Shown here in pieces: positions 4,052 through 64,000 of a DNA stretch of 64,000 nt (its first letter is position 1; each line of letters opens with the position of its first letter). The position numbers were made by a program, and so were the translations under genes. The stretch is from the sequence record NC_054916.1. One strand, 5' to 3'. This DNA comes from Escherichia phage vB_EcoM-G28. Below the pieces are notes generated by a model. The model saw only the letters and a program-made list of their open reading frames with translations. It was not told where the DNA came from and searched no databases.

Positions 4052-4311
4052 AAAAGATTCCTTTTAATGTATCTTTTAGACCATTCTATCATATCATCAT
4101 AATCTAAAAAGTATTCGTCAAATTCAGCCATGCAAACAACGCCTTGTGCTGTTTTTGATGTAATGTAAATTATTCCAACATATCTAGAATCTTCTTCGAT
4201 ATAATCAATATTTGCTATGAATTCATCATTAATGTCAAATGTCGAAAACTTCACAGTATGCATCCTTAATACAAGATACAGCCATATCTCGTAATGATTT
4301 AGGTGTGTCAT
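4048..4311 (-). CDS. Hypothetical small protein, start uncertain (ATG at 4311 or 4263)
   Basis: ORF in track; contains the DINDEF segment whose 19-bp coding sequence is repeated at the 5' end of the HNH gene. Confidence 0.4.
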   Translation of the reverse strand: MTHLNHYEIWLYLVLRMHTVKFSTFDINDEFIANIDYIEEDSRYVGIIYITSKTAQGVVCMAEFDEYFLDYDDMIEWSKRYIKRNLL

Positions 4312-4498
4312 TATCTAAAATGTTGAAGTTAAAAGATACAGCCCAGTCAGTGCAGACTGTAACCTTTTTAATACAATTATCTTCAACCTCTAACGGTTCA
4401 AACCAATATTCAATAATTTCTTTATGCCCAATATCATCTTTTACTTCGCATTCAAAATGCTGACTCATCATAACATTTTTAAATTCATCAAAAGTCAT
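4235..4498 (-). CDS. Hypothetical small protein (87 aa)
   Basis: ORF in track starting in overlap with the gene 47 stop. Confidence 0.45.
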   Translation of the reverse strand: MTFDEFKNVMMSQHFECEVKDDIGHKEIIEYWFEPLEVEDNCIKKVTVCTDWAVSFNFNILDNDTPKSLRDMAVSCIKDAYCEVFDI

Positions 4499-5514: not shown

Positions 5515-6115
5515 GGTGTCTTTTCCATCCTAATTTAGCTGCTTTTGAAACCAGTTCTTTAATTTTTCCTTTTGTCCATTCAGGACCAGGAGGTTCATGA
5601 CATAACATTTGCTTAACTCCGTTATTATACCATTTTTTACCTTTATTATGTGATGAAGCTTTAAATTTATTTGACCTTCCTTTTACATAACCTTCTGGAA
5701 TATAAGGCAAAAAGGCAGATTTTCCTGTTAATGGATCATGTGAATGTATATTTCCTTTACAATTATGAGAACCATATAATGGATGATTTTGTCCTTTATT
5801 ATCTCTTCCAAATGAACCTTTTGGAGCAGCATATGACATATTAAAGAATAATGGATTTTTAACTGCATCATGCAATCGTTGATAATATAACTCGCATTTA
5901 ATAGCTTCTTCACGCGTATCAAATTCAGCTAAAATGCATGAATCAAATAAGTGAGGATTATCTGAAAGCTCTTTATTATAAATTTTCTTATACTTTTTAG
6001 ATAAAACTGAACCATGATATCCAGCTAAATGCCTATCTAAAGACGTAGATCCAATATAAAAAGGAGGAAGTTTATCTCCGCTATATATTGTTAAATAAGT
6101 TATATATTTTTTCAT
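5492..6115 (-). mobile_element. Free-standing GIY-YIG homing endonuclease (Seg-like)
   Basis: N-terminal YLTIYSG...FYIGST with conserved Arg and Glu; basic C-terminal region; 3' end overlaps the gene 47 start by 23 nt. Confidence 0.75.
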
Positions 6116-31245: not shown

Positions 31246-31459
31246 ATTTAACTTCCTCACCAGTACATAAATCGTATTCAACTAAACGAATAGGTTCATG
31301 AATGCCATATCCCTGAACAGAAATTTCTGTCGTAGGATAAATTCCATCAATATCACCCATATTCCAGGCTTCATTAAATTGCTGTTCGCCTGAATTACTA
31401 AACCACTCGGCGAAAGCATTTAGTACATCTTTAGAACCTTCAATAATTATCTTTGCCAT
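31238..31459 (-). CDS. Hypothetical protein (73 aa)
   Basis: ORF in track. Confidence 0.45.
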   Translation of the reverse strand: MAKIIIEGSKDVLNAFAEWFSNSGEQQFNEAWNMGDIDGIYPTTEISVQGYGIHEPIRLVEYDLCTGEEVKYD

Positions 31460-31821
31460 TATAAGCTCTCAGTAAAGGTACGAGCGATAACGTCGCGCTG
31501 CTGTTCCGGAGTCAGAGAGTTAAAGCGAACTGCATAACCTGATACACGGATGGTCAGCTGCGGATATTTTTCCGGATGCTTAACTGCATCTTCCAGGGTT
31601 TCACGACGCAGAACGTTAACGTTCAGGTGTTGACCACCTTCAATTTTAACTGTAGGCTGTGTTTCAATTTCAATTTCACGGGCGTGCAATCCATAGAAAA
31701 TTTCCGGGTCTACAAAAGAGTCCTCTTTAAAGGTTTTAGAGACAATAATTCGTGCTTGAATACCATCTTCAAAATAAATAGTACCTTTATGTGTGCCTTC
31801 AAGAATTTGATATGCTTTCAT
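31459..31821 (-). CDS. Autonomous glycyl-radical cofactor (GrcA/YfiD-like)
   Basis: C-terminal about 60 aa ([56 protein letters not shown]) carries the RVSGY glycyl-radical motif and matches E. coli GrcA as I recall it. Confidence 0.8.
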
Positions 31822-31828
31822 ATAAACC

Positions 31829-32161
31829 TCAATTAGAAAATAAATTTATCCAAGATTGTTCTTTAATTAAAAATGGCTCAGAATCATATGCCATTAAACT
31901 TTGGGTGATTAGTCCTTTAAAAGGTCCATCAATAAATTCCATGGTAAAATATGGAATTTTATTCATTAGCCGTGCATTAGGAGCAGTACATAAAACTCTG
32001 CATCCTTTGAATACACCCTTTTGTAATTTGTATTGCTTGGGATAAAATTCGCTCAAAATGTTATTATTTGCTAAAATTTCAAAATGATTCACCAATTTAT
32101 TTTTAATAGTTTTTGGCGAAAAATAGAGATATTCGAAAAGCTGTGTGTCTGTCATCATTGC
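31829..32161 (-). CDS. Hypothetical protein (about 110 aa from MMTDTQ)
   Basis: ORF trimmed to ATG overlapping the upstream double stop. Confidence 0.45.
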
Positions 32162-32694
32162 ATTCCGATTACGAAAAACTGTGGACGAGTAATACCACCA
32201 ATACAACATTTAATATTACAGCAGCAGTGTACAGTGTCAATATGGACACTATAAATCTTATCCATATCAGGAGATTTGACAGGCTCATCAATTATATACA
32301 AAATTCGCGAAAGCGATAAACCTCTGAACTTACTTCCTTTATTACCAATAAAACTGCGTACAGAATCAGTAAATAAACGAAAACGTATATCATCATTAGA
32401 ATAACGCGAAAATTCCTTTTTGATGTTATTTGCAGAAATTTTAGCATAAGCTGAAGTATTAGAAAGAACAATAACTGTTCCGCCATCATACAACCAATTA
32501 GCAGCGAAGTTAGTCACAGCAATTGATTTACCGGATTGACGTCCACCATCTAGTCGAAGTGTGCAATACTGTTTAAGTAAGTCTTCAAATGGCGGGATAT
32601 ATTCGTTTTTACAAATTTCTTCTACTCTAGCATCAGAATGGTGTGTAAAAGCATTCATCAGGGATAGATAAGGACCAGTTAAAAATGTTCTCAT
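32155..32694 (-). CDS. Small P-loop NTPase with C-terminal cysteine cluster (about 179 aa from MRTF)
   Basis: Walker A GGRQSGKS, Walker B-like LYIIDEP, C-terminal HCCCNIKCC. Confidence 0.55.
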   Translation of the reverse strand: MRTFLTGPYLSLMNAFTHHSDARVEEICKNEYIPPFEDLLKQYCTLRLDGGRQSGKSIAVTNFAANWLYDGGTVIVLSNTSAYAKISANNIKKEFSRYSNDDIRFRLFTDSVRSFIGNKGSKFRGLSLSRILYIIDEPVKSPDMDKIYSVHIDTVHCCCNIKCCIGGITRPQFFVIGMQ

Positions 32695-32835
32695 TTTGTT
32701 CTCTCTAGGTTTGGGCCATTCCATGGCGCATGAATTGTCCATTTCTGTATTTACCCATTACCGCACTTGGGCTCGACCTTATTACAGGTTGGCGGGAATC
32801 CCTTATAGAATCATAAGGTCCAGGTTGTTCCCATA

Positions 32836-33309
32836 TTATTTGAACGATTTAACGTACTGAATAGAACCTTTACTATTTACAAAGGCAATTTTACCATTTT
32901 TATTATACATGGTAGCAGTACGTTGATAGCCATAAGTTTGTTTACCAGATTGATAACCAACTAATGCGAAATTATCTTCACCCATTTTATTCTGTTTAGC
33001 GCGAATGCGTTCATGACCATGTGCCATAAGAACCTTAGCATCACCAGTTGCAATGGATCGACGAGTTTTTTCATCTTCAACTGTATTAACAAAGTCGTCA
33101 AATGAATCAAATTTAGCATGAGATTTATTATACAATTTTCCATCTACTGCATAATTATATCCCTGTACATCCATCTCAACTTCTGTACCATCATCCAATA
33201 CAGCAGTGATTTTTTGACCTTTTTTAAATTTCAAAAGATCAGTAAAAGATTCAGCAATAATTTGAGAATTAATAGCTGCTTCAGTGATAAATTCTTGATA
33301 TGTTTTCAT
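32836..33309 (-). CDS. Internal (capsid-packaged) protein with capsid targeting sequence
   Basis: N-terminus MKTYQEFITEA matches the T4 internal-protein capsid targeting sequence; ipII/ipIII position next to e. Confidence 0.7.
   Translation of the reverse strand: MKTYQEFITEAAINSQIIAESFTDLLKFKKGQKITAVLDDGTEVEMDVQGYNYAVDGKLYNKSHAKFDSFDDFVNTVEDEKTRRSIATGDAKVLMAHGHERIRAKQNKMGEDNFALVGYQSGKQTYGYQRTATMYNKNGKIAFVNSKGSIQYVKSFK

Positions 33310-33397: not shown

Positions 33398-34366
<969 letters not shown>

Positions 34367-62036: not shown

Positions 62037-64000
<1,964 letters not shown>

Follow-up and report, generated by a model that had tools for sequence, protein, structure and literature searches.

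Which protein does Escherichia phage vB_EcoM-G28 encode in the small open reading frame (ORF) beside its internal-protein gene, and what might that protein do? The ORF lies in a 64,000-nucleotide stretch of sequence record NC_054916.1 (the window), and a sequence-only reading had described its product as a stand-alone P-loop NTPase with a metal-binding cysteine tail that could not be assigned to any known T4 gene. The answer has two parts. The gene corresponds to vs.8 of T4, and the DNA just upstream of it carries a candidate RNA element that is more interesting than the protein itself.

Identification of the ORF as vs.8

The coding sequence (CDS) occupies 32155..32694 on the minus strand, with its TGA stop at 32155..32157, and encodes 179 aa from the ATG at 32694, as the sequence-only reading had it. 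The ORF is far beyond chance because it matches PHROG 1488 over residues 3–179 (E = 2.1e-79) and because 1,006 records of annotated phage genomes cover at least 80% of the 179-aa protein. The product and the core of T4 Vs.8 (T4p119, NP_049732) are identical at 176 of 179 residues; the three differences consist of one K-to-S change and the replacement of HYCCNSKCC by HCCCNIKCC. The two proteins have the same motifs and C-terminus, and in both phages vs.7 lies downstream and internal-protein/lysozyme genes lie upstream. The counterpart is labeled vs.8 in the RB69, RB14, and T4 records, always in the order regB, vs.3 to vs.7, vs.8, and its position is kept as the first gene past the internal-protein/denV block, followed directly by vs.7 and vs.6. 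By sequence and synteny the ORF is the T4 vs.8 ortholog. In T-even-type phages this is an accessory gene that belongs to the regB-vs cluster. The gene can therefore be assigned to a T4 gene, although a poorly characterized one, and it occupies the vs.8 slot rather than the place where T4 has denV and ipII/ipIII.

The Vs.8 protein is already known. Annotation of the T4 genome gave it its name, and both its resemblance to the terminase ATPase and its capacity to trigger Avs2 appeared in print in 2026. The features added here to the published description are the correct start codon, the non-conserved cysteines, the small size of the family, and the conserved vs.8–vs.7 pair. As a discovery the protein matters little.

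The longest form of the ORF ending at 32155 starts at 32742 and would encode 195 aa. By comparison across the family, the ATG at 32694 is the true start because the N-termini of all distant homologs coincide with the equivalent M[RK]xxLT, and the in-frame ATGs upstream of it, at 32724 and 32742, lie within DNA that is read in differing frames in different phages. The T4 reference protein is annotated with 219 aa instead of 179, and its 40 extra codons are not conserved as protein. An 8-nt tandem duplication, CTTATAGAG, ahead of the real ATG is the sole cause of this extension (L003, T4 NC_000866, locus 5849..5913), which overlaps the conserved upstream RNA motif. Annotated starts also vary in other phages, giving 189 aa in RB14 and 167 aa in RB69, and the conserved start yields 179 aa. 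The 179-aa form, and not the 219-aa form annotated in T4, is the apt one for experiments. A promoter and terminator scan near vs.8 found nothing above chance.

Vs.8 is probably a remote relative of the terminase ATPase

The Walker A motif or P-loop, GGRQSGKS, is encoded at 32524..32547 on the minus strand (residues 50–57) and includes Arg52, a terminase-type P-loop arginine. The segment from Asp49 through GGRQSGK to residue 56 is invariant in 17 sequences that reach down to 40% identity. In a 33-sequence set that extends to 17–30% identity, Arg52 and Gly55 are conserved at 90% or more, and the P-loop is degenerate (GH[ST]) and the acidic pair absent only in the four most remote members (P0056, P0058, P0061, and P0066). 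Walker B, LYIIDE (32284..32301, minus strand, residues 132–137), ends with a catalytic-type Glu137 and aligns with MIYIDE at residues 251–256 of gp17, the T4 large terminase. Across the 17 sequences Leu132, Ile134, Ile135, Glu137, and Pro138 are invariant, and Asp136 is present in 16. GGRQSGKS and LYIIDEP (residues 132–138) are thus present as first read, and the description of a small stand-alone P-loop NTPase stands, with its Walker residues conserved among the homologs. Just upstream of Walker B, Arg124-Gly125 (32320..32325, minus strand) is likewise invariant in the 17 sequences and aligns with Arg246-Gly247 of gp17 ('vRGNSFA'); by this alignment it may be the equivalent of the terminase arginine finger. 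The protein finishes with the strand QFFVIGMQ (32158..32181, minus strand, residues 172–179), in which Phe173, Gly177, and Gln179 are invariant, and its end appears to fall near the position of the terminase coupling (C) motif strand.

An AlphaFold2 (AF2) model based on the family alignment has a predicted local distance difference test score (pLDDT) of 80 and a predicted template modeling score of 0.81, with the exception of residues 157–168, where pLDDT falls below 50. The model predicts a strand at residues 45–47, the P-loop at 50–57, a helix at 55–69, and five strands in all, with the C-terminal strand covering residues 172–175. As modeled, Vs.8 has the core layout of the additional strand, catalytic E (ASCE) P-loop class, the P-loop lying between strand 1 and helix 1.

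Direct scans with the single Vs.8 sequence gave weak matches to AAA_14 in Pfam (E = 0.03) and to PHROG 2, the large terminase TerL (E = 1.3e-5). When 33 family members were scanned singly, 16 matched the Pfam family Terminase_6N (best E = 1.4e-4) and 18 matched PHROG 2 (best E = 3.9e-8), and terminase was the sole named PHROG function that recurred. A profile of the 33 sequences was searched against 177,635 PDB sequences, and gp17 chains took the first three places (E = 9.5e-5 to 2.9e-4). In gp17, the aligned part extends from residue 139 through SRQLGKT (161–167) and RGNSF to the IDE ending at 256. An hhalign comparison of Vs.8 and gp17 (E = 0.0026) places Walker A and Walker B in register, with gp17 160-LSRQLGKT-167 opposite the P-loop. 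A narrower profile made from the 17 closest homologs returned nothing significant from the PDB sequences.

Structure comparison is less specific. Foldseek against the PDB returned generic P-loop matches with template modeling scores of 0.4–0.5, so the Vs.8 family cannot be named by fold alone. The N-terminal domain of the phi29 gp16 packaging ATPase and the RecA1 domains of superfamily 2 (SF2) helicases match at the level of fold, with 8–17% identity. Terminase and SF2 ATPase cores are alike in structure and fold scores cannot separate them, which leaves the choice between the two ancestries to sequence profiles. The profiles prefer terminases, both in the three best PDB matches and in the TerL PHROGs. 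The RQxGK[ST] form of the P-loop is a terminase feature, and its arginine is conserved in TerL proteins, where it contacts the γ-phosphate (PMC5389665). A published PSI-BLAST search converged on T4-like terminases (PMC13601566). Neither a second RecA-like domain nor any helicase motif beyond Walker A and Walker B was found in Vs.8. Descent from an SF2-helicase RecA1 domain is accordingly an unlikely alternative to descent from a terminase.

Vs.8 has none of the parts with which a terminase moves or cuts DNA. Missing are the counterparts of gp17 residues 1–138, the lid (subdomain II), and the nuclease domain, and the alignment stops at about residue 275 of 610. Vs.8 is not a terminase but only terminase-derived, because it ends at residue 179, after the fifth strand, without a lid or nuclease. 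T4 gp17, with its N-terminal ATPase subdomain I (PDB 2o0h, 3cpe, and 3ezk; Terminase_6N), also has portal-binding parts that are not in Vs.8, and terminases require the Lid subdomain and a trans-acting arginine (PMC5389665). The genes also differ in their setting, vs.8 belonging to the regB-vs cluster and gene 17 standing among packaging genes.

Several observations weigh against terminase ancestry. The G28 protein itself scores 12.7 bits against Terminase_6N, below the cut-off of 22 (E = 0.1). The region of gp17 with the adenine-recognition Q-motif (139–150), upstream of Walker A, aligns to a variable stretch of Vs.8 that has no conserved glutamine. A profile search of 1.84 billion representative proteins yielded only 50 clusters, nearly all of 160–185 aa with the longest at ~260 aa, and there was no full-length terminase among its matches. 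The link, as judged from these comparisons, is a remote one. With these points taken into account, the best overall explanation is that the ORF is the counterpart of T4 vs.8 and encodes a stand-alone, truncated ASCE ATPase core derived from a terminase, and we consider this very probable.

A truncated core with remote similarity to terminase would also be expected if a terminase or helicase gene had been duplicated and one copy were decaying into a functionless fragment. The ORF is, however, intact and full length in more than 1,000 phage genomes of several genera at 37–100% identity, its catalytic motifs are invariant, and its start and end are conserved, which makes decay extremely improbable.

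The cysteine-rich stretch is a variable loop

The stretch HCCCNIKCCIGG (32194..32229, minus strand, residues 156–167) had been read as the end of the protein and as a metal-binding tail. It is not the end, as twelve further residues follow, and these are better conserved than its cysteines. In the G28 protein five cysteines and one histidine fall within 9 residues, a point in favor of a metal site. The number of cysteines in the cluster drops from 5 here to 4 in T4 and RB14, 3 in the RB69 type, 1–2 in more distant homologs, and 0 in P0014–P0017. The corresponding sequences are HCCCNIKCC here, HYCCNSKCC in T4 and RB14, and QHCCKSKYC in RB69, and none of the cluster's cysteine columns is conserved. 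A metal-binding tail is unsupported because the cysteines are not conserved and because residues 157–168 are the segment modeled with pLDDT below 50. By alignment and model the cysteine run is a variable loop and not a conserved metal site, and it may be ignored in studies of Vs.8.

The cluster had been part of a broader proposal: a P-loop NTPase that is novel, has no relative among T4 genes, binds metal through its cysteine cluster, and takes the place of denV, ipII, and ipIII. The absence of denV from the window agrees with that proposal: tblastn with T4 and RB69 DenV found no DenV-like sequence across the 64 kb at E ≤ 10, as had been said. Classically, T2-type phages are not known to carry the T4 denV (v) gene. 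RB14 has the same layout as G28, in which the slot adjoining vs.8 holds a single Ip4 gene instead of the denV-ipII-ipIII of T4, and the implied connection with the missing genes comes down to a difference in a neighboring cassette. Since the gene is T4 vs.8, no cluster cysteine is conserved family-wide, some homologs have none, and the low-confidence loop is followed by conserved residues, a novel metal-binding replacement for these genes is highly improbable.

Possible roles of Vs.8

In published work T4 vs.8 emerged as an 'uncharacterized ATPase-like protein' from an in silico screen in which T4 proteins were set against EcAvs2, a terminase sensor (PMC13601566, Nat Commun, Aug 2026). In co-expression with EcAvs2 it caused toxicity, it was homologous in sequence to the T4 terminase ATPase domain, Walker A and Walker B included, and AlphaFold 3 placed it in the EcAvs2 sensor pocket with a bridging ATP at an interface predicted template modeling score of 0.84. 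That study leaves the role of vs.8 open and suggests that such activators may be anti-defense proteins. It also describes Ksap1 and Ksap2, small lineage-restricted phage proteins with a terminase-ATPase-like fold that trigger Avs2, and lists Vs.8 as a possible third. Ksap1 and Ksap2 come from Dhillonvirus and Stephanstirmvirinae, and Vs.8 differs from them in keeping Walker A and Walker B and sequence homology to terminase. Other identifiers of vs.8, when searched in the literature, led to no relevant paper.

The proposed mechanism starts from an ASCE P-loop ATPase core that is truncated and goes back, remotely, to the N-terminal ATPase subdomain of gp17. The conserved residues suggest that Vs.8, acting as a nucleotide-binding module, would bind ATP and might hydrolyze it, and a core of this kind would be unable to act as a translocase. 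Most likely Vs.8 serves as an ATP-loaded look-alike of the terminase ATPase, engaging partners able to recognize that surface, and it probably works together with Vs.7. Joint action is probable because the ATG of vs.7 overlaps the stop of vs.8 (ATGA) and because a vs.7 homolog follows vs.8 in four phages. Matches to Vs.7 directly after vs.8 were found in RB69, SonariX, Merlin, and F48 (phmmer E = 3e-43 to 4e-7), four of the five phages tested, and in the fifth, TG1, the neighboring gene had no significant phmmer match to Vs.7. By gene order and sequence, vs.8 and vs.7 are a conserved, translationally coupled pair, which makes vs.7 relevant to any study of vs.8. The partner itself (31829..32158, minus strand, 109 aa) belongs to PHROG 2049 (E = 5e-54) and, in Pfam, to PF26834, an uncharacterized family with few distinct homologs. 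An internal repeat of a DGPFKG-like motif was seen in Vs.7.

The regB-vs cluster is rich in anti-defense genes. Its vs.4 is known as a cyclic-nucleotide sponge. Its vs.3 is the anti-Thoeris sponge TadIV-1 (PMC13243611). Because of this neighborhood and the Avs2 result, a role in anti-defense, as an immune decoy, or as a modulator of terminase-binding proteins is ranked first, possibly exerted with Vs.7; by analogy this is the leading candidate for its role, held tentatively. In the decoy form taken alone, Vs.8 is perhaps a mimic of the terminase ATPase kept for an arms race with terminase-sensing immune receptors, a possibility that we hold more loosely still. Two considerations count against an anti-defense role. 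It draws on the neighborhood and on analogy, and triggering of Avs2 harms the phage, which means that the benefit of vs.8 cannot be read from the reported interaction as such.

Alternatively, Vs.8 could be a working enzyme with a substrate of its own, engaged for example in ATP-dependent remodeling of nucleic acid or protein together with Vs.7, and its likeness to terminase and its recognition by Avs2 would be evolutionary leftovers. Glu137 and Arg52 are as strictly conserved as the binding residues, and it is not obvious why a protein that only mimics a shape should need them. The coupling of vs.8 to vs.7 is conserved across genera, and small stand-alone ATPases of a similar kind occur widely among myoviruses and jumbo phages (PHROG 2586; BFVD). 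Many of the nearest neighbors of Vs.8 in BFVD, a viral structure library, are small uncharacterized proteins of these phages. The enzyme would, on the other hand, have to function in 179 aa without a lid, a second RecA-like domain, or an obvious substrate-binding module; no enzymatic family was matched in Pfam, NCBIfam, or PADLOC, and its partner belongs to an uncharacterized family. NCBIfam returned no match of any kind for Vs.8, and a PADLOC match to HerA (E = 0.03) was dismissed as meaningless. An independent enzymatic role is possible and ranks next after the decoy/anti-defense role.

A predicted structured RNA motif upstream of vs.8

The ~140 nt between the Ip4 gene and vs.8 show conservation at the DNA level across genera in which the Vs.8 proteins share only ~40% identity. 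Conservation is organized in blocks split by variable inserts, and reading frames are inconsistent. A protein-coding function for this region was rejected because the frames differ between phages. The interval contains a predicted structured RNA at 32742..32833 on the minus strand, composed of helices P1 and P2, a three-way junction formed by P4, P5, and P6, and a pseudoknot; it scores 83.7 bits (E = 6e-15) with the covariance model R1. The same motif, ~75–110 nt in size, occurs in T4 (L003, 5849..5940, minus strand), in RB69 (L001, 3840..3947), and at ~70 further loci.

The helices were found by anchored dissection, and variants of each were observed. P1 occurs as GGGAA/UUCCC, GGGAG/CUCCC, AAAGG/CCUUU, AAAGA/UCUUU, and AAGC/GCUU; P2 as CCUUAU/AUAAGG or CCUCAU/AUGAGG; P4 as CCA/UGG, CCCU/AGGG, and CUGG/CCAG; P5, closed by a GURA-type loop, as ACCU/AGGU or GCCU/AGGC; and P6 as GC..GC, GU..AC, and GG..CC. 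R1 was built from P1, P4, and P5 and run on loci fetched by a core-only DNA pattern, an alignment called A3 being too divergent for locus retrieval. It matched 59 loci in a first batch and 14 in a second, ~35 of them in contigs that are not T4-like.

Covariation was measured on a model-based alignment of 55 matches, 54 of them distinct. Paired cells make up 89.5% of the total compared with 68.6% in shuffles, and none of 500 shuffles came up to that level. As for the covariation score, it is 0.575 compared with 0.162 for shuffled alignments and at most 0.24 for any slid register. Each of the five pairs of P1 is represented by three or four standard pair types (four types at four of the five), and P1 lies outside the search pattern used to retrieve the loci.

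In the pseudoknot, a segment following the 5' strand of P1 pairs with the 3' tail, as supported by a position-specific test that replaced an uninformative test for the longest stem anywhere. The 4-mer at offset 3 has a strict Watson-Crick complement in its own tail in 24 of 48 cases compared with 3.2% of cross-pairings, and 12 different 4-mers are involved. At offset 4 the corresponding values are 29% and 3.0%, and the other offsets stay at background (0–10%).

Folding of single sequences from the region did not outperform shuffles for either strand, only two hairpins came out of RNAalifold when it was given a plain MAFFT alignment, and tRNA and tmRNA prediction at the motif found neither. The antisense strand was considered as the transcribed one, as it has lower minimum free energies and the A·C mismatches of P1 and P7 become G·U there, and it was rejected since the motif is co-oriented with tRNA genes elsewhere.

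A separate hairpin lies between the motif and the gene. In the 5'-untranslated region, ~20 nt upstream of the vs.8 start, GCCA-UGGAA-UGGC followed by CCC (32713..32727, minus strand) is unique in the window. Its loop always contains GGA, and 107 of 116 cells are Watson-Crick. Fully compensatory stems occur as CAGCA/UGCUG (L021), GGCA/UGCC (L023), and GACA/UGUC (L041). The hairpin stays with vs.8 in F48, where the RNA motif is displaced. We take it to resemble the GGA-loop sites bound by CsrA-type regulators. A second conserved AUGGAC was noted ~15 nt further upstream of the hairpin.

Distribution and possible meaning of the RNA motif

Outside T4-like phages the motif keeps different company. 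In 16 of the 24 non-T4 contigs checked it is found within or next to a tRNA array and on the tRNA strand, for instance 5 nt after tRNA-Ser (L140), 23 nt from tRNA-Glu (L053), or between two tRNAs (L129). The other 8 of the 24, such as L112, L118, L121, and L125, have no adjacent co-oriented tRNA. The transcribed strand is fixed as that of vs.8 because the motif is co-oriented with tRNAs in these other phages. A search of 212 kb of fetched sequence found no Vs.8-like protein encoded in the non-T4 contigs, and in F48 (Marfavirus) another gene separates the motif from vs.8. The motif is apparently an independent element and not part of the Vs.8 protein; an independent small RNA is favored because of its placement in or beside tRNA arrays on the tRNA strand in other phages.

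No Rfam 15 family matches the motif, and a literature search did not find its core sequence. Matching regions in over 1,300 records of annotated phages, among them Felixounavirus and 47–70-kb Klebsiella phages, bear the labels 'none' or 'hypothetical protein'; for the L131-type region, annotated phages yielded no match. In the T4 record the motif stretches from the stop codon of denV into the vs.8 CDS as annotated, and probably because of this overlap it was not seen as intergenic. A stringent core pattern run on 596 Gb of bacterial and archaeal genomes gave one match, in a contig of a metagenome-assembled genome, which the covariance model did not confirm. On balance, the comparative evidence leans modestly toward a real, functional, and so far undescribed class of RNA.

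Phage non-coding RNAs beside tRNA genes include the T4 species 1 and 2 RNAs (rnaC and rnaD) and the large RNAs ROOL and GOLLD. Like them, the motif is phage-borne, often lies in or near tRNA arrays, and is on the tRNA strand. It is much smaller than ROOL and GOLLD at ~75–110 nt and has an architecture of its own, with a three-way junction and a pseudoknot. As a further difference, it is found once in the window, beside vs.8, and the window, extending from vs.8 to gene 17, should hold the tRNA region.

Ideas for its function include a tRNA-related decoy or processing element, and the P5 loop could resemble GUN anticodon loops or the lambda boxB loop. If the motif is what it seems, it would be a new class of phage non-coding RNA present in more than 1,000 phage genome records and essentially absent from cellular genomes, and its role would probably be important, for example in tRNA-related anti-defense, processing, or regulation.

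Three contigs carry tandem copies of the motif ~30–100 nt apart (L101 5085..5304, L115 8967..9187, and L112 799..967); two of these contigs are T4-like and one is unrelated. Of the two copies in the T4-like contigs, the second is a shorter variant whose P6 has a CGC loop. Rfam abiF RNA (RF03085) was seen near the motif at L065 583..618 (52 nt downstream) and at L079 3624..3655 (~440 nt upstream), and L129 contains a group I intron (4112..4333).

Genes around vs.8

The 5 kb around vs.8 are 96–97% identical to many Tequatrovirus genomes, RB14 included. The gene in the adjoining slot, at 32836..33309 on the minus strand, encodes an Ip4-type internal virion protein (Pfam DUF7412, E = 6e-96; PHROG 3155 'internal virion protein'; annotated Ip4 in RB14), and its product carries an MKTYQEFI targeting sequence. 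Some otherwise similar phages have an insertion of ~400–720 bp annotated as endonuclease V at this site, seen as two-piece matches. The neighborhood also includes the T4-type lysozyme gene e (33398..33892) and nudE, which together with the Ip4 and vs.6 genes identify a T-even-type phage. On the other side of vs.7, the product of vs.6 (31459..31821, minus strand) is an autonomous glycyl-radical cofactor of the GrcA/YfiD-like type (Pfam Gly_radical, E = 2e-18), in agreement with the T4 annotation. The first 219 codons of gene 17, the large terminase, are present at 63342..63998 on the plus strand, where the window end cuts the gene, and tblastn aligns them to residues 1–219 of T4 gp17 with 99.5% identity. 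The vs.8 gene and its presumed ancestor, gene 17, are ~31 kb apart on opposite strands.

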